Below are positions 39,495 to 46,482 of a stretch of 64,000 bases of DNA, in pieces (positions within the stretch are counted from its first letter, which is position 1; every line of letters starts with the position of its first letter). A model generated the notes under the pieces. It was given only the letters and a program-made list of their open reading frames with translations. It had not been told where the DNA came from and made no database searches. The position numbers and the translations under genes were made by a program. The stretch is from assembly GCA_044373465.1 (NCBI GenBank), contig JBILQE010000011.1, forward strand, positions 7,523-71,522, read 5' to 3'. The DNA is from Akkermansiaceae bacterium. Its GTDB lineage: Bacteria > Verrucomicrobiota > Verrucomicrobiia > Verrucomicrobiales > Akkermansiaceae.

Positions 39495-40337
39495 TTGGAT
39501 TTCCTGTTGGGAAACCTGCTCGTCGCGGGGTATCTGAGGAGGGTGAACGCGTTGCGCATGCTCGGCAGGATGCCGCTGGACTTCATCGCCTATCTCGGCG
39601 GGGTCGGCAGCCTGGCTGGCGCGACGGGTGAATCGCTGGTCCGCGGCCGGCGGCGCTGGCGGGTGGTCATCGCCCAGATTGCGGAGATCGGCTACCGATC
39701 GCAGCCGGTGGTGATCATCACCGGGGCGTTCACCGGAGCCGTGCTCGCTGCCCAGGCGTTGTTCCAATTCAGCGCGTTGAACATGGAAACCGCGGGCGGC
39801 GCGCTGGTCAGCGTGGCGATGCTGCGCGAGCTCGGGCCAACGATCACCGCGCTGATGCTCGCCGGGCGCGTCGGCGCCGCCATGGCCGCCGAGATCGGCA
39901 CCATGAAGGTCACCGAGCAAATCGACGCGCTCCGCTCGATGGACGTCCACCCGATCGACTTCCTGGTCGCCCCGCGGTTGTTGGCGATGCTCGTCTCGAT
40001 GCCGTTGCTCATCGCCGAGAGCGCGGCGTTTGGGATTGTCGCGTCGTTCATCGTCGGCGTCTACGCGTTCGATGTCACGGAAGCCTACTGGCTGGCGAAC
40101 ATGCAGAAGTTCACCGTGCTGTCGGACATCTTCATCGCCATGGTCAAGGGGCTGGTGTTCGGCGTCCTCACCGTGATGATCTCCTGCCACCAAGGGCTCT
40201 CAACCACCAACGGCGCCGTCGGCGTCGGCCGCGCCACCACCCGCGCGATGGTCTATTCCTCCCTCGCCATCCTCATCTCCAACTTCTTCCTCACCTTGCT
40301 GATGAACGTGTTCTTCCCAAGTGGGGGGACGAGGTGA
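39495..40337 (+). CDS. mlaE: MlaE-family ABC transporter permease
   Basis: ...IAQIAEIGYRSQPVVIITGAFTGAVLAAQALFQF...LGPTITALMLAGRVGAAMAAEIGTMKVTEQIDALRSM...; colinear with MlaE/TtgB-type permeases. TTG at 39495; alternative ATG at 39558. Confidence 0.8.
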   Translation: MDFLLGNLLVAGYLRRVNALRMLGRMPLDFIAYLGGVGSLAGATGESLVRGRRRWRVVIAQIAEIGYRSQPVVIITGAFTGAVLAAQALFQFSALNMETAGGALVSVAMLRELGPTITALMLAGRVGAAMAAEIGTMKVTEQIDALRSMDVHPIDFLVAPRLLAMLVSMPLLIAESAAFGIVASFIVGVYAFDVTEAYWLANMQKFTVLSDIFIAMVKGLVFGVLTVMISCHQGLSTTNGAVGVGRATTRAMVYSSLAILISNFFLTLLMNVFFPSGGTR

Positions 40338-40340
40338 CGT

Positions 40341-40438
40341 GCGTAGCGAACTTTGTTAAAAGTTCGGCGGGGTCAACCGCCTGCCGCCAGAACGCCCGGG
40401 CTCACCAGAGGACTTCCGGGCGTTACCCCGCCGAAGCA
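40341..40438 (+). repeat. REP-A element copy e
   Basis: gcGTAGCGAACTTTGTTAAAAGTTCGGCGGGGtcaaccgCCTGCCGCCAGAACGCCCGggctcaccagaGGACTTCCgggcgttaCCCCGCCGAAGc. It begins 4 nt after the mlaE stop and overlaps the PIN gene stop. Confidence 0.9.
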
Positions 40439-40935
40439 TCCACTTCGAGCAATTCCCGGCGGATATCGCGGTAAAGGGCAATCGAGATGCGCAGATGGTG
40501 GGATGAAACCGCGGTGTCCACATCAGCCATCGCTTCTTGACCGGTGAGCAACCCGCGCCGGGCAGCAAGGACGAGCAGGCCGAGGGTGCCGATGGTGGCG
40601 ATCCCCTCGTGAGCGGCGATGCGGCGCAGCAGTCGTTCGTCAGCCACCAGCCAGTCGGCGCAGTGGCGCACGGCGTAGGCTAAAGTGCGTGCGTCACTCG
40701 CGCTGAGTCTGCCCGACGGCTGGGTTGGCTCCGGGATTGTGACAATCCGGATGCTTCCGAGAAACTCGCGCAGGCGTTGCTGTTCGGCATGGAAGTTTTC
40801 AGCCGGGGCAAGCACCTCGGCGACGACGCCTTGGAGAACGACCACCTCGCCGCCCAGCAGGGAACCGATGAGGGTCAATCGGTCCAGCTTTGCCAAGAAA
40901 ATCAGCGGACTCGCGTCACAAACCACGGTGGTCAT
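40423..40935 (-). CDS. PIN-like nuclease toxin (DUF3368 type)
   Basis: MTTVVCDASPLIFLAKLDRL... and ...ATIGTLGLLVLAARRGLL... match the DUF3368 pattern that partners UPF0175 antitoxins. 4-nt overlap with the upstream gene. Confidence 0.72.
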   Translation of the reverse strand: MTTVVCDASPLIFLAKLDRLTLIGSLLGGEVVVLQGVVAEVLAPAENFHAEQQRLREFLGSIRIVTIPEPTQPSGRLSASDARTLAYAVRHCADWLVADERLLRRIAAHEGIATIGTLGLLVLAARRGLLTGQEAMADVDTAVSSHHLRISIALYRDIRRELLEVDASAG

Positions 40936-41264
40936 GGCAAGCGGCTCAGATCGTCACGGAAGTCGCTGACATCATAGTGCAGGTCGACTTTCGCCGCTTC
41001 CATCAGCGCAAGGAAATCCCATGGGCTAAGGCCCGCGAGCTCCGCGGCGCGCGAGAGGGTCACCTTCTCCTGCCGGTAGGCGTCCACCGCCCGGTCCCGG
41101 CGCAGGTGCTCTAAGCCATTCCTCAGCAAAGTTTTGATGAGCGTCGCCCGATCACACCCTTCCAGCTCAGCCAAGGACTGGATCAGTGCCACTTCCGCAT
41201 CATTCAGACGGGTGGAAACGGTGCTAGTTGCCGGCATGTCTACAGCATCGCACACCGTAAACAT
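40932..41264 (-). CDS. UPF0175-family antitoxin
   Basis: ...AVDAYRQEKVTLSRAAELAGLSPWDFLALMEAAKVDLHY... is the characteristic UPF0175 helix-turn-helix C-terminus. Confidence 0.72.
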   Translation of the reverse strand: MFTVCDAVDMPATSTVSTRLNDAEVALIQSLAELEGCDRATLIKTLLRNGLEHLRRDRAVDAYRQEKVTLSRAAELAGLSPWDFLALMEAAKVDLHYDVSDFRDDLSRLP

Positions 41265-41277
41265 CGCGACAAGTGGT

Positions 41278-41390
41278 GCGTAGCGAACTTGGGGAAAAGT
41301 TCGGCGGGGTCAACCGCCTGCCGCCAGAACGCTCGAGCACGCCAAGGACTTCCCGCCGTCCTCCGCCGAAGCTCTCGCGAGCTTCGCTAC
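41278..41390 (+). repeat. REP-A element copy f
   Basis: gcGTAGCGAACTTggggaAAAGTTCGGCGGGGtcaaccgCCTGCCGCCAGAACGCtcgagcacgccaaGGACTTCCCGCCGTCCTCCGCCGAAGCTCTCGCGAGCTTCGCTAC. It lies between the antitoxin start and the sufD stop. Confidence 0.9.
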
Positions 41391-41397
41391 GAGGGTC

Positions 41398-42687
41398 TTA
41401 GGGGAACTTCGCGTCGAGGAAGCGCAGGGCGGCGTCCTGGAGGGCTGGGTTTGAGAGGCGGTCGATGACGTCGATGGAGAACCCGCGGGCGATGAGCTGG
41501 CGGGCGCGGACCGGGTCGATCCCGCGGGCGCGGAGGTAGAAGATCTCCTCGTCGCTGATCTGTGAGGAGGTGCTGCCGTGGGAGCACTTCACTTGGTCGG
41601 CGTTGATTTCCAGGCCGGGCATCGAGTTGGCCTCGGCGTCGTCGCTCATGAACAGGTTGCGGCAAGTCTGGTAGGCGTCGGTTTGGTGGGCGCCTTCGTC
41701 GACCGAGATCAGGCCGGAGAAGATGGTCCGCGACTTGTCGTACAAGGTGTTCTTGTAGAGCAAGTCTGAGGATGCGCCGGGAGCCACGTGGTGTTGGAAC
41801 GTGCGCTGGTCAAATTCTTGCGTCCCGGTGGGGACCGAGACGGCCAGCATGTCGGAGCGGCCGCCGCGCCCTTCGAGGCGGCTAAGGCTTTCATTGCGCG
41901 CCCAGCTGGCGCCGAGGTTGAGGATGAAGCCGGTGGCGGAGGCGTCGGCGGCCACGCTCGTCTCGTTGACCTGGATGACTTTGCTCGCTTCGTTGAACGC
42001 CTGGATGGCGACGTAGTCGAGCTTTGACCCGGGGCCGGCGATCAAGTCATTGACCGCGATCGCCAAGCCGGGATCGGCCGGGTTGCCGGACTGGAAGTAA
42101 TCGATCACGCTGACCTTCGCGCCGCGGCCGGTGACGATCAGGGTGTGCGGGAAGATCACGACGTTCTCGCCGGCGAGCCAGTGGAAAACTTCGATCGGCT
42201 CCTCAACTTCAACGCCATCAGGAACAAAAACAAACAAGCCGTTGCGCAGGCTCGCCTCGTGCAGCGCGGTGAACTTCGCCGACCCGAGGCGGGTGTCGCG
42301 GCGCATGAAGTGCTCGCGGACGAGCTCGCCGTGGGTCGCAAGCGCCTCGGCCAGCGGCAGGCAGACGACCCCGTCTGGCAGGCGCGAGTCGCTCAGGACC
42401 AGCTCGTCGTTGATGAACACGAACTTCGCCGCAGAAACCTCGAGCGAGCATGAGCGGGCCAGCAGCCGGGCCGCATCCGGAGTTTCTGCGCTAGGCATGA
42501 AGGTGCTGAAATCCAGCTCCTTGAGTGATGAGAACCGCCACTGCTCGTCGCCGCGCTTCGGTTGCGGCGTGGCAAGAAATCGCTGCCACGCGGAATCCTG
42601 GCGCGCGGAAAACCAGGCGGGGAAGCCAGCCGGTGAACTCGGGGCGGTGGTGAGCAGGGAAGTAGGATGGTCGAGCACGGCAGACAT
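41398..42687 (-). CDS. sufD: Fe-S cluster assembly protein SufD
   Basis: ORF trimmed to the ATG at 42687. ...RGDEQWRFSSLKEL... and the C-terminal ...QTCRNLFMSDDAEANSMPGLEINADQVKCSHGSTSSQISDEEIFYLRARGI... are SufD/SufB-fold blocks. Confidence 0.88.
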   Translation of the reverse strand: MSAVLDHPTSLLTTAPSSPAGFPAWFSARQDSAWQRFLATPQPKRGDEQWRFSSLKELDFSTFMPSAETPDAARLLARSCSLEVSAAKFVFINDELVLSDSRLPDGVVCLPLAEALATHGELVREHFMRRDTRLGSAKFTALHEASLRNGLFVFVPDGVEVEEPIEVFHWLAGENVVIFPHTLIVTGRGAKVSVIDYFQSGNPADPGLAIAVNDLIAGPGSKLDYVAIQAFNEASKVIQVNETSVAADASATGFILNLGASWARNESLSRLEGRGGRSDMLAVSVPTGTQEFDQRTFQHHVAPGASSDLLYKNTLYDKSRTIFSGLISVDEGAHQTDAYQTCRNLFMSDDAEANSMPGLEINADQVKCSHGSTSSQISDEEIFYLRARGIDPVRARQLIARGFSIDVIDRLSNPALQDAALRFLDAKFP

Positions 42688-42706
42688 GGGAAAAGCTAGA
42701 GGGGGC

Positions 42707-42880
42707 TCAGGATAATTTTCTGATGATGGAACGAGCGAGAACTTCATTGATCTCGTTATGGCGTGGAACAGCTTGGAAAACTTTAGTGATCGGATTGATG
42801 TACCAGTCGTGTTTGCCCCCATGGCGGACGAGTTCACAACCTAGGTCACTGAGCTTTTTCAGAAGAGCAGTGCGCTTCAT
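42707..42880 (-). CDS. hicA: HicA-family mRNA interferase toxin (57 aa; not in the supplied ORF track)
   Basis: My own translation: MKRTALLKKLSDLGCELVRHGGKHDWYINPITKVFQAVPRHNEINEVLARSIIRKLS*. The G.(K/N)H....P......(I/V)PRH.EI....A..I...L pattern is HicA-like. ATGA overlap with the hicB stop. Confidence 0.8.
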   Translation of the reverse strand: MKRTALLKKLSDLGCELVRHGGKHDWYINPITKVFQAVPRHNEINEVLARSIIRKLS

Positions 42881-43065
42881 GCGATGATCAATTCACCGCG
42901 CTGCCTCACTCCGGGTAAGCTCTTTGAAGTCAGCTCTTTGTACAGGTCGACAAGATGCTCTTTGAGATCATCAAGGCTTTCTCCCTGAGTCTGGTAGTCA
43001 GGAAAGTCGTCCAGAAAACCAAGGAAGAAGTCCCCGTCCTGCCAGTAGGTAAAGCTCGCTTTCAT
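42877..43065 (-). CDS. hicB: HicB-family antitoxin (short form, 62 aa)
   Basis: MKASFTYWQDGDFFLGFLDDFPDYQTQGESLDDLKEHLVDLYKELTSKSLPGVRQRGELIIA matches the YWQD..W.LGYL.E.PDY.TQGE..EEL.E.L.D.Y..L motif of short HicB-like antitoxins. It is the C-terminal part of ORF 42877..43374, which otherwise overlaps sufB. Confidence 0.78.
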   Translation of the reverse strand: MKASFTYWQDGDFFLGFLDDFPDYQTQGESLDDLKEHLVDLYKELTSKSLPGVRQRGELIIA

Positions 43066-43079
43066 TGGCGTAAGAATCG

Positions 43080-44513
43080 TTATCCAACCGAGCCTTCCAT
43101 CTCCAGATCGATGAGGCGCTTGAGTTCGACCGAGTACTCCATCGGGAACTCGCGCACGAGGTCGTTGATGAAGCCATTGACCGCGAGCGACATGGCCGCC
43201 GCTTCGGAGATTCCGCGCTGCTGCATGTAGAACAGCATTTCCTCGGAGACTTGGGAGACGGACGCCTCGTGCTGGGTCGCGTGCTGGTTGCCTTTGACGG
43301 TGATGGCCGGGTAGGTGTCGGTGCGGCTGTGGGAGTTGATCAGGAGCGCGTCGCACTCGGTGTTGTTGCGGCAACCCTTGAGGTGCTTCGGGATGTGGAC
43401 TTGGCCGCGGTAGGTCGCGCGCCCTTGGCCAACCGAGATGGATTTTGAAACGACGTTGGAGGTCGTTTCATCCGCGGCATGGATCATCTTGGCGCCGGTG
43501 TCCTGGTGCTGGCCGTCGTTGGCCAGGGCGATCGAGATGACCTCACCGCGGGCGCGGCGGCCCTTCATGATGACGCCCGGGTACTTCATCGTCAGGCGTG
43601 AGCCGATGTTGCAGTCGATCCAGCGGACTTCGGCGTCCTCCATCGCCAGACCGCGCTTGGTGACCAGGTTGAAGACATTGCTGCTCCAGTTCTGGACGGT
43701 GATGTACTGGATCTTGGCGCCCTTGAGGGCAACGAGCTCGACGACCGCGGAGTGCAGGGTGGCGGTCTCGAACTTCGGCGCGGTGCAGCCTTCCATGTAC
43801 ATCACCTCGGAGCCCTCGTCGGCGATGATGAGCGTGCGCTCAAACTGGCCAAAGTTCTCCGAGTTGATCCGGAAATATGCCTGGAGCGGGTGCTTCACCT
43901 TGACGCCCTTGGGGATGTAGATGAACGACCCGCCGGAGAACACCGCGCTGTTGAGGGCGGAGAACTTGTTGTCGCCCGTCGGGATGACCTTGCCGAACCA
44001 TGGGCGGAAGATCTCCTCGTGCTCGCGCAGCCCTTCGGTGGAGTTGACGAAAATCACGCCTTCCTTGGAGAGCGCTTCCTTCACGTTCGAGTAGGCGGCC
44101 TCGGAATCGTACTGGGCTTCAACGCCGGCCAGGAACTTCCGCTCCTGCTCCGGGATCCCGAGGCGCTCGAAGGTCTCCTTGATTTCATCCGGCACATCGT
44201 CCCACGAGCGCTTCGGCGCCTGGCCGTCGCTGAGGTAGTAGCGGATCTTGTCGAAGTCGATGTTCTCGAGGTCCTTGGTCGCCCAGTGGGTGGGCATTGG
44301 TTTTTCGCGGAACGCCTTGAGCGCCTTGTGGCGGAACTCGAGGAGCCACGGCGCCTCCTTCTTGACCTCCGAGATGTAGTCGATGGTCGCCTCGGTCAAA
44401 CCGACGCCGGCATCGAACTTGTGGCGTTCCGGAAACCGGAAGTCGCCCTTGCCGCGGTCGATCTCGATCGCGCTGCGGGTTTCGGCATCTAGCACTGGGG
44501 CTTCGTAGGACAT
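43080..44513 (-). CDS. sufB: Fe-S cluster assembly scaffold SufB
   Basis: 477 aa. ...[24 protein letters not shown]...[20 protein letters not shown]...[23 protein letters not shown]... is unmistakable SufB. Confidence 0.95.
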
Positions 44514-44551
44514 GGAAGTGGGTGGGTGGCCGCGGGTGCGGCGGGGTTTGG

Positions 44552-45307
44552 TCAGGCGTTTACAAGCGCCTCGTCTTTCAGGAAGTCGTAGCCTTTTTCC
44601 TCGAGTTCGAGGGCAAGTTCCGGGCCGCCGGAGCGGACGATCCGCCCCTCGGCCATGACGTGGACGTGGTCCGGCTTGATGTAGTCGAGCAGCCGCTGGT
44701 AGTGGGTGATGAGCAGGAAGCCGCGGGTGGGCGAGCGCATCTCGTTGACGCCCTTGGCGACGATCCGAAGCGCGTCGATATCGAGCCCGGAGTCGGTCTC
44801 GTCCAAGATAGCATACCCTGGCTCAAGCATCATGAGCTGGAGGATTTCGTTGCGCTTTTTTTCGCCGCCGGAGAACCCTTCGTTGACCGCGCGGGCGGTG
44901 AACTTGCGGTCCATCTCGAGGATGTCCATCTTGGCGTAGAGCTCCTTGTAGAAAGCGACGGCGTCAATTTCCTCGCCCTTCGGCAGGCGTGCCTGGCGCG
45001 CGGCGCGGAGGAAGTTCGCGTTGGAAACTCCGGGGACTTCTGCCGGATATTGGAAGGCGAGGAAGATCCCGGCGCGCGAGCGTTCATCGACCGACATCGC
45101 CAGCAGGTCGAGCCCGTCCATCGTCACCGAGCCACCGGTCACCTCGTAGCTCTCGTGGCCGGCAATGATTTTCGAGAGCGTCGACTTCCCGGACCCGTTC
45201 GGGCCCATGATCGCGTGCACCTCGCCGCGGGGGATTTCCAGGTTGACCCCTTTGAGGATCTCGGTTTCGCCGATGCGGGCGTGCAGGTCGTGGATCAGTA
45301 GGCTCAT
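44552..45307 (-). CDS. sufC: Fe-S cluster assembly ATPase SufC
   Basis: [44 protein letters not shown]...[36 protein letters not shown]... Confidence 0.95.
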
Positions 45308-45337
45308 GAAAGTTGCTCAGGGTGAAAGGTTGCTCGG

Positions 45338-45763
45338 CTAGGCGCTCGGCAGCTTGCCGCGCAGGGTGATCTCGACGTGCTCGATGACCGCGCCCTCGGG
45401 AAGGATGATGAAGTCGGAAAGTTCCACGCCCGGCTTGAAGACCACGTCGTGGATCGTGTTGCTCGCGAGGTCGTGGAAATGCCCGTGCTCGGTCAGGTTC
45501 GGGCAGTAGCGCGACGGCCCGCGCTCAAAGTTGACCTGCCGGACGAGCCGGTGCTGGACCAACGCTTCCAGGCAGTTGTAGACCGTCGCCAGGGACACCG
45601 AGGGGAGCCCCTCCTTGACCTTCATGAACACGTCGTTGGCCGTCGGGTGGTCGAGATCCCGATTCAGCACCCGGAACACCTCGCGGCGCTGCCGGGTCAT
45701 GCGCAAGCCACCCACCGCTTCGAGCGGCCCGTGGGAATCCGAATGATGCTCGTGGTTGACCAT
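45338..45763 (-). CDS. Fur-family metalloregulator
   Basis: ...RMTRQRREVFRVL....HPTANDVFMKVKE..PSVSLATVYNCLEALVQHRLVRQVNF... is a winged helix, followed by the ...EHGHFHD... metal site. The N-terminal MVNHEHHSDSHG is His-rich. No CxxC pairs are present. Confidence 0.8.
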   Translation of the reverse strand: MVNHEHHSDSHGPLEAVGGLRMTRQRREVFRVLNRDLDHPTANDVFMKVKEGLPSVSLATVYNCLEALVQHRLVRQVNFERGPSRYCPNLTEHGHFHDLASNTIHDVVFKPGVELSDFIILPEGAVIEHVEITLRGKLPSA

Positions 45764-45801
45764 GACGGCGGCAACCTAGGCGACCACCGGCCGGTTTCAA
45801 G

Positions 45802-45820
45802 AATAATTCTAATTTTAATT
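45802..45820. promoter_or_regulatory. AT-rich Fur-box-like site / promoter upstream of the fur-suf operon
   Basis: aataattctaattttaatt is an isolated AT block in GC-rich DNA, 39-57 nt upstream of the fur-like ATG. By my own alignment it matches GATAATGATAATCATTATC at 12 of 19 positions. On the coding strand it reads as three AATTAN hexamers and contains a TAGAAT -10-like hexamer. Confidence 0.4.
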
Positions 45821-46113
45821 CCAGATCTTTCCCGCGAGCGTGGACGCAATGGCGGGTCGTGGGGGAATTGGCAAGCCAAGAGCGCGGCCCATGATGCTTT
45901 GCGCGGGCGGAACCGCGTTGCGGTTCTAATAGCTTGCTGGCGGATCCCAGGGTAGGCCGCATTCGGCCAACCCTGGGCTGAAGGGCGCAAGCCCGCTGGG
46001 CTTGGGAGCGTCCTTCGGCCGGGTTGCGCCGCCCGCGCGGAACCAGCCGGCGCGGCGTGACGGACCGATGAACCGGCTTGCTGGAGCGGTAGAAAAAACA
46101 AGGCTGTCGGCCT

Positions 46114-46482
46114 ATGGCACCCGATTTTGCAAAGATATTTTTCGATGGTGGGCCGGTGATGATCTTGGTCGCGCTGGCGACCCTGGCGTGGGTTGCCGCG
46201 ATGGTGGTGTGCTTGCTGTGGAAATGGCCGTATGCGAAGCGCTTGGCGGTGATGGCGGTGTTTCCGCTGGCGTTTGTGATCCTTGGAGCGCTGAAGGCGG
46301 CGCTCAACGAGCACGCCGCGGCGCTCTATGGCATCCGGTACGGCCTGGTCGACCCGGGAATGTATTATGAAGATTTGTTGGCAGCGAGCCGTTCGAGCAT
46401 GATGATCCTGGCCATGGCCGGGTTATCAATGCTGGTGTTCGTGGTCGGGTGCTTTCTGCCGCTCGGCGCGGAAAAAAAGTAA
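46114..46482 (+). CDS. Small integral membrane protein (hypothetical)
   Basis: 122 aa with 3-4 clear hydrophobic segments (ILVALATLAWVAAMVVCLL, LAVMAVFPLAFVILGAL, MMILAMAGLSMLVFVVGCFL). No family recognised. Confidence 0.5.
   Translation: MAPDFAKIFFDGGPVMILVALATLAWVAAMVVCLLWKWPYAKRLAVMAVFPLAFVILGALKAALNEHAAALYGIRYGLVDPGMYYEDLLAASRSSMMILAMAGLSMLVFVVGCFLPLGAEKK

Follow-up and report, generated by a model that had tools for sequence, protein, structure and literature searches.

Class 2 hicBA is reported as the commonest arrangement among HicA modules: hicB precedes a closely linked hicA and encodes a small HicB (63–103 codons) without a DNA-binding domain (Gerdes, 2024; PMC10865869). Characterized HicB antitoxins carry a C-terminal helix-turn-helix or ribbon-helix-helix domain that autorepresses the module's own promoter, and how modules without a DNA-binding domain are transcribed is unexplained (PMC10865869). 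Here, we analyzed a 64,000-nt stretch of DNA from an Akkermansiaceae bacterium (GCA_044373465.1, contig JBILQE010000011.1, positions 7,523 to 71,522; hereafter the window), in which a hicB-hicA pair lies between sufB and sufD of a suf operon for iron-sulfur (Fe-S) cluster assembly. We suggest, with a probability of roughly 70%, that this hicBA is a long-lived selfish passenger in a swap-prone gap of the operon. For one lineage, the window locus and ~25 relatives give a concrete and testable answer to the transcription question, namely that a Class 2 hicBA may borrow the transcript of its host operon. Our literature search brought up no account of toxin-antitoxin genes within a suf operon.

The locus reads, in minus-strand order, Fur-like, sufC, sufB, hicB, hicA, sufD:

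45338..45763, minus strand: Fur-family regulator gene at the head of the operon, 30 nt upstream of sufC (PF01475 FUR, 73 bits)
44552..45307, minus strand: sufC, Fe-S assembly ATPase (TIGR01978, 357.6 bits against a cut-off of 212.8)
43080..44513, minus strand: sufB (TIGR01980, 611 bits against a cut-off of 346)
43066..43079, minus strand: spacer of 14 nt from the sufB stop to the hicB start, read directly
42877..43065, minus strand: hicB, compact antitoxin of 62 aa without a DNA-binding domain
42707..42880, minus strand: hicA, 57-aa toxin of the mRNA interferase family (PF07927)
42688..42706, minus strand: spacer of 19 nt from the hicA stop to the sufD ATG, keeping the conserved TTTTCCC-ATG context of sufD
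41398..42687, minus strand: sufD (TIGR01981, 228.9 bits against a cut-off of 222)

Open reading frames (ORFs) and family assignments agree with the sequence-only reading, which had placed a co-oriented hicB-hicA pair between sufB and sufD. It was also right that the hicB stop and the hicA start overlap as ATGA (4 nt), but the flanking spacers that it gave as 15 and 20 nt are in fact 14 and 19 nt. The sufD start (ATG at 42687) is conserved in relatives, and the N terminus MSAVLDHP aligns with residue 1 of their SufD. An identical HicB is carried by 17 contigs from JGI, ENA, and Logan assemblies and, at the 10 places listed, lies between sufB and sufD; the same placement across these sources argues that the arrangement is no assembly artefact. 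We rejected the idea that hicA is polymorphic within the species of the window: gene callers missed the gene on some contigs, yet each of the nine independent contigs that span it completely carries an intact copy.

Because the spacers are only 14 and 19 nt, hicBA is most likely transcribed on the suf mRNA, which would start upstream of the Fur-like gene or of sufC. Consistent with the earlier claim that the pair sits inside the operon, it has neither room nor motif for a promoter or terminator of its own: a scan for the sigma-70 consensus found no sigma-70-like site on the coding strand within 40300–46300, terminator-like sites within the scanned operon were at chance level (7 versus 5.4 expected), and the operon held no Rfam match. 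Translation of hicA may be coupled to that of hicB, as their ATGA overlap suggests. The spacer between sufB and hicB is equally tight in relatives, at 10–14 nt in nearly all other suf-linked copies and 49 nt in one (L033), a range that leaves out loci with another cassette upstream of hicB. Such promoterless embedding is not supported as a general habit of this 63-aa HicB family: outside suf, the gaps upstream of its members run from ~10 to 770 nt, as judged by crude ORF calling that is noisy in GC-rich DNA.

A familiar comparison is mazEF of E. coli, which closes its unit downstream of relA and is driven by an autoregulated promoter of its own. Like it, the window locus is a type II pair that runs in the same direction as a nearby housekeeping or stress gene. 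It differs in that the pair is flanked on both sides by genes for subunits of the same complex, within an Fe-S operon that is presumed essential, and is without an autoregulatory domain.

We next asked what the two small proteins are. HicA passes the Pfam HicA family PF07927 at residues 6–55 (40.6 bits against a cut-off of 27; 39 bits for the same locus in a genome-wide scan), so the family call that the sequence-only reading had left to a hidden Markov model (HMM) check stands. Its predicted structure (mean predicted local distance difference test score, pLDDT, 93.1) consists of H3-13, E16-21, E24-29, E34-39, and H46-56, where H denotes helix and E strand. The seven best Foldseek matches in the PDB are all HicA or HicA-like proteins (among them 6hpb, 6g26, 1whz, 4p78, and 4c26) from E. 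coli, B. pseudomallei, Y. pestis, and T. thermophilus. Their probabilities are 0.97–1.00 with E-values of only 0.017–0.22, modest because the protein is so short; the four best have TM scores of 0.76–0.85 and root-mean-square deviations (rmsd) of 1.3–1.7 Å. A HicA profile searched against PDB sequences gave only a weak match, to E. coli HicA (E 0.22). His24, in the GGKH loop after strand 1, is invariant in 19 sequences and also in a set of 10, and we take it to be the equivalent of the catalytic His24 of B. pseudomallei HicA. By family membership, a protein with this double-stranded-RNA-binding fold and invariant His24 would be an mRNA-cleaving, ribosome-independent toxin.

HicB has 76 homologs of ~63 aa, several of them named as HicB family by NCBI and JGI. 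Its AlphaFold model (pLDDT 93) shows a beta-beta-beta-alpha arrangement (E5-10, E13-18, E21-28, H31-46) followed by an unstructured but conserved tail (P51, R54, L59), and most of its ten best Foldseek matches are HicB or HicB-like antitoxins (3kwr, 6g1n, 6g1c, 3k6q, 2dsy, 6u0i, and 6hpb). The model may correspond to a partial RNase H fold (beta-beta-beta-alpha, then beta) without a further domain, and the protein would, as in its family and in solved complexes, neutralize HicA by direct binding; without a DNA-binding domain, this HicB could therefore not repress a promoter of its own. Pairing within the family points the same way. Outside suf, the 63-aa HicB family usually directly precedes a 57-aa HicA, mostly with a 1- or 4-nt overlap, and such pairs occur in unrelated neighbourhoods in Verrucomicrobia, Planctomycetota, Acidobacteriota, Dehalococcoidia, and others. 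In all, hicB adjoins a co-oriented hicA in 16 intact suf-linked pairs and at dozens of unrelated loci. The HicA HMM and fold, the HicB-like model, and the family pairing together bear out the earlier call of a HicB/HicA toxin-antitoxin module.

Given the hicB-hicA order, the gene sizes, and the absent DNA-binding domain, the pair fits a compact Class 2 hicBA type II toxin-antitoxin module. It shares with that class (PMC10865869) the leading hicB, a HicB of 63 codons including the stop, and overlapping genes, and its 57-aa HicA is slightly below the class-typical 60–85 aa. It departs from the class in having no promoter space and lying inside a host operon, and so may offer one concrete answer to how such modules are transcribed; the same review does not describe Class 2 residence within, or co-divergence with, a housekeeping operon. 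Compared with characterized HicAB modules (E. coli K-12, 6HPB; Burkholderia pseudomallei, 6G26/4C26; Yersinia pestis HicA3B3, 4P78), the HicA folds match (TM 0.73–0.85, rmsd 1.3–3.4 Å), the N-terminal domain of HicB matches the window HicB (TM 0.5–0.66), and the conserved His of the G-x-x-H loop is shared. However, sequence identity is 21–25%, the characterized modules read hicA then hicB whereas the order here is reversed, and, unlike them, the window pair has a HicB without a DNA-binding domain and no promoter of its own that is apparent.

When did the pair enter the operon? We examined ten suf loci in genera other than that of the window, within its family and order; all ten have the order sufC-sufB-sufD wherever the locus reaches these genes, and in the eight cassette-free loci in which sufD was found, sufB and sufD are adjacent or at most ~100 nt apart. 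Since the two genes are adjacent in most relatives, hicBA is an insertion. The sister species in the same genus (G001) has the cassette at 91% nucleotide identity, and metagenome contigs carrying the closest HicB homologs (>70% identity) all place HicB between sufB and sufD. We then searched 401 family genomes for matches to a HicB profile and to SufB. HicB stands directly after sufB in 18 of them, confined to three genera (g1, 2/2; g8, 5/35; g5, 11/102) and absent from the other 17. In 401 order-level genomes, the 30 top-ranking HicB matches included no suf-linked hicBA outside the family. Loci bearing hicBA came from a targeted search, and 18/401 and the 10/40 reported below for a second cassette are the only unbiased frequencies.

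In a tree of concatenated HicB and HicA, the 16 suf-linked pairs group together as a single clade (support 98/92) that excludes the 19 other pairs, with the window copy sister to the remaining suf-linked pairs on a long branch (0.29). Pairwise identities of HicBA and SufBD are strongly correlated (Mantel r 0.91; 0/5000 permutations as high), and monophyly of the g8 hicBA copies is not rejected (p-AU, the P value of the approximately unbiased test, 0.34). The single clade and the divergence of HicBA in step with SufBD indicate a single old entry into the sufB-sufD spacer, which would predate the split of g1, g5, and g8 and have been followed by co-inheritance with the suf genes. GC content over the window cassette is 0.49–0.52, against 0.60–0.68 in the flanking suf genes, but we rejected this dip as a sign of recent arrival: hicBA has a GC content of 0.40–0.56 and lies below its suf flanks in every lineage, long-diverged ones included. 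The earlier description as an insertion is thus right, whereas a recent or private one does not suit a single clade in three genera that co-diverges with SufBD. Its proviso that the arrangement might instead be universal and ancient in the clade comes close on age but fails on universality, given how few of the family genomes carry the pair.

To learn whether the position itself is unusual, we scored the content of the sufB-sufD gap at 79 suf loci and counted gains and losses on a SufBD tree of 60 rows. This comparison led to several observations. First, the gap has four states: empty, hicBA, a cassette of a small ORF plus a nucleotidyltransferase, or both. Empty gaps range from a 17-nt overlap to 124 nt, mostly ~35–57 nt, and in most of those of g5 and g8 the last bases before the sufD ATG form a pyrimidine-rich run; several native spacers, for example in L074, are rich in CACTT(T/C) repeats, as is the stretch after hicB in L020, L022, and L023. 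Second, the alternative cassette consists of a ~70-aa ORF (SFEEAE...TPxERL...LRxQxYG...PRLQR) overlapping a ~150-aa minimal nucleotidyltransferase (GGYAV..HG.PRYTGDIDF), with copies 38–87% identical to one another (L004:889-1462 in G008, L051, L042, L066, L071, L076, L081, L082, L096, L099, and L102). The nucleotidyltransferase has marginal Pfam matches to AbiEii, DUF2204, and DUF6036, and the cassette looks like an uncharacterized toxin-antitoxin-like pair. It was present in 10 of 40 g5 and g8 genomes that were chosen regardless of gap content, except that they were without suf-linked hicB. Third, mixed occupancy occurs: the two cassettes follow one another in G404 and G368, the small ORF accompanies hicBA in G386, and in three genomes (G134, G208, and G364) the gene after hicA is an 82-aa ORF homologous to the small ORF (L035:1831-2079, L034, and L037), seemingly an orphan partner gene that stayed behind in the slot.

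The four states require at least 17 changes on the 60-row tree (shuffled mean 23.5; 0/200 shuffles as low), and sister species with branch lengths of 0.02–0.04 differ in state. All occupants point the same way as the suf genes and fit in tightly; spacers directly flanking hicBA in relatives are mostly 0–47 nt, and gaps of up to ~750 nt occur only beside the second cassette. The C/T-rich motif directly 5' of the sufD ATG is found at empty, hicBA-filled, and nucleotidyltransferase-filled gaps alike. As to mechanism, we rejected an integron cassette, for which the spacers (14 and 19 nt here, mostly 0–47 nt in relatives) are too short to hold an attC site, and no integrase gene lies in the gap in the window or in the relatives' loci. 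We also looked for flanking direct or terminal inverted repeats around the cassette and found none, and no transposon-like ends.

Oliveira et al. (2017; PMC5635113) described transfer hotspots that lack mobile elements and are flanked by core genes. The slot is similar to these in its variable content between conserved core genes, in rapid turnover among close relatives with no integrase, transposase, or repeat boundaries, and perhaps in homologous recombination, of which one mosaic contig (L162) gives a hint. It differs from those hotspots in lying inside an operon between two subunits of one complex, in taking up only small cassettes in operon orientation, and in that its occupants persist and co-diverge with host genes rather than being strain-specific.

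These results bear on the proposal, first made in the sequence-only reading, that placement reflects adaptive coupling. Under it, hicBA would be expressed only along with a Fur-controlled suf operon, iron limitation or oxidative stress would raise HicBA, and turnover of labile HicB would free HicA to cut mRNAs and slow growth until Fe-S supply recovers; alternatively, HicA would process the suf transcript and set the SufB:SufD ratio. In its favour, the exact placement has been kept under purifying selection across three genera, the cassette is without a regulator of its own, a Fur-family gene heads the operon, and insertions always preserve the sufD start context. We nevertheless consider it unlikely, if worth keeping in mind: the pair is found in only 18 of the 401 sampled family genomes, close sister species differ in state, the toxin decays first as in dispensable toxin-antitoxin loci (see below), and an unrelated cassette sits in the same gap elsewhere, so that the placement is more readily put down to the site itself than to a specific HicA-suf function. 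A more elaborate variant takes the spacer as a dedicated harbour for promoterless toxin-antitoxin cassettes, in which HicA would match growth to Fe-S supply; the cassette dose would be set by iron or oxidative stress, because the slot is inside a presumably indispensable operon under a Fur-family regulator. This we regard as speculative and a little less likely again.

Another possibility is that hicBA is an anti-phage (abortive-infection) module whose position is incidental, perhaps with a weak internal promoter in the end of sufB, the gap being a tolerated landing site. Defence roles have been argued for HicA modules (Gerdes, 2024; PMC10865869), the alternative occupant is an AbiEii/DUF6036-like nucleotidyltransferase (by marginal Pfam matches), and the gap turns over quickly, as in defence hotspots. 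Against this, PADLOC gave no match for HicA or HicB and only weak ones for the nucleotidyltransferase, the gap holds no other defence, integrase, or phage genes, and the long co-divergence with host genes is unlike the rapid lateral turnover of defence islands. We judge this explanation to be improbable.

In informative pairs of sequences, the ratio of non-synonymous to synonymous substitution rates (dN/dS) is 0.03–0.18 for hicB and 0.00–0.23 for hicA. At the same time, the toxin was lost first in eight lineages, and no locus has hicA but lacks hicB, as would be expected if loss of the antitoxin before the toxin were lethal. In the sister species (G001), hicA is frameshifted at codon 20-21; we rejected an assembly error, since the same 1-nt insertion is present in an independent contig (L157). 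In G208, hicA has a stop at codon 23. Four loci (L020, L021, L023, and L029) have lost hicA and kept hicB, with approximately the first 13 nt of hicA retained in L029. In L022, hicA is gone and hicB is frameshifted; in G232, hicB is truncated at residue 51; and in G118, only a hicB remnant with a stop is left. The relatives therefore make up a decay series, from an intact pair through a frameshifted or stopped toxin, a deleted toxin, and a decaying antitoxin to an empty gap, and from this series one can read, without experiments, in which order the parts of a chromosomal toxin-antitoxin pair disappear. The earlier suggestion that the pair stabilizes the operon is unlikely in this light: the genome of the window has one sufB match, and the cassette is often lost, toxin first.

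In copies of this hicBA family outside suf, too, hicA is often damaged or gone while its hicB neighbour is intact: some have stops (L105, L109, L114, and L121), others frameshifts (L120, L122, L060, and L062), and others no hicA at all (L110 and L059). Toxin-first decay thus seems to be general for the 63-aa hicBA family.

Is the pair in the window itself still alive? A dead relic, with HicA inactivated by substitutions at conserved positions, would account for several features: the window HicA departs from the family consensus at Asp5, Gln28, Pro37, and Arg42, the window copy sits on its long branch, and the other sampled lineages of the genus all have a disrupted or deleted hicA. Yet the substitutions A5, I28, and A37 are common to the sister species (position 42 differs, N versus T), and hicA has evolved since the split of the two species with a dN/dS of 0.08 (12 synonymous and 4 non-synonymous differences from G001, counted after removal of the 1-nt insertion of G001). 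Moreover, His24, Gly14, Arg19, and the PRH motif are intact, as is the gene on each of the nine contigs noted above. We therefore hold a dead relic to be very improbable. There is also a sign of exchange with the sister species: L162:392-565 is an intact mosaic hicA whose 5' half is identical to the window and whose 3' half has the variants of the sister species, which points to recombination inside the cassette between the two species.

Taken together, we favour the reading of hicBA as a selfish passenger, which partly overlaps with its rivals. The cassette would have entered the sufB-sufD spacer once, before g1, g5, and g8 split, and would afterwards have been inherited together with the suf genes, under purifying selection and yet dispensable. 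From a presumably indispensable operon, it would gain expression without a promoter of its own. A clean deletion would be hard, as the toxin must go before or with the antitoxin and sufB and sufD must be left unharmed. Promoter-free expression and difficult clean deletion would then be the reasons why the cassette persists. A gap that exchanges two unrelated toxin-like cassettes is a useful case for studying the persistence of selfish genes in a housekeeping operon.

Several points weigh against this reading. HMM support for the pair, on which the sequence-only reading had made its call depend, is there for HicA only: HicB has no match in Pfam (even at E ≤ 10), NCBIfam, or PADLOC, and phmmer and profile searches of HicB against the PDB returned only spurious matches. 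The Foldseek matches of HicB reach a probability of 0.97, but their E-values are never below 0.13, weak because the protein is tiny. As of 2024, experimental tests of Class 2 hicBA modules were lacking altogether (PMC10865869), and for this reason we infer toxicity and neutralization of the window pair from the wider HicAB family. An internal promoter within the 3' end of sufB is possible, as the promoter scan covered only the sigma-70 consensus. Strong long-term purifying selection is also what an adaptive role predicts. Finally, gains and losses were counted on a SufBD tree that may itself be affected by recombination, as the mosaic within hicA of L162 illustrates.

The sequence-only reading had singled out sufC preceding sufB, and this order is confirmed as the norm, seen in the 8 of 10 loci from other genera (family and order) that reach sufC. 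SufB is 83–90% identical across the family. The best NCBIfam matches of the Fur-family gene are PerR/Irr-like and below their cut-offs, and the same gene also precedes sufC in the relative L022. In close relatives of the window's genus, a ferritin-like gene (PF00210) lies between sufC and sufB (L020:861-1343 and L022:2128-2640); the corresponding spacer is only 38 nt in the window, so variation affects a second junction of this operon too. No sufS follows sufD, as had been noted before. A lone sufS (555 bits) sits on another contig beside an HtrA-like protease gene (G000:C47:2612-3805; L123), and a third contig carries a NifU_N scaffold gene and a FeS_assembly_P (SufT-like) gene (G000:C17:45241-45597; L126). 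The suf system of this genome is thus scattered.

We also noted some minor features of the hicBA copies. Codon 23 of hicA (42812-42814 in the window), just before the invariant His24, varies among suf-linked HicAs between Lys, Arg, Cys, and Asn; it is Cys in most g5 copies, and the stop in G208 falls exactly there. Where hicA was lost in L029, a 14-nt unit, ACTTTCCACTTCGC, is tandemly expanded (L029:526-747). Six other HicA-family loci in the genome of the window (G000) also pass the Pfam cut-off (C73:13321-13485, C68:857-1024, C42:76606-76773, C75:6713-6874, C54:9323-9463, and C73:22607-22786), but the genome has only one HicB of the 63-aa family.

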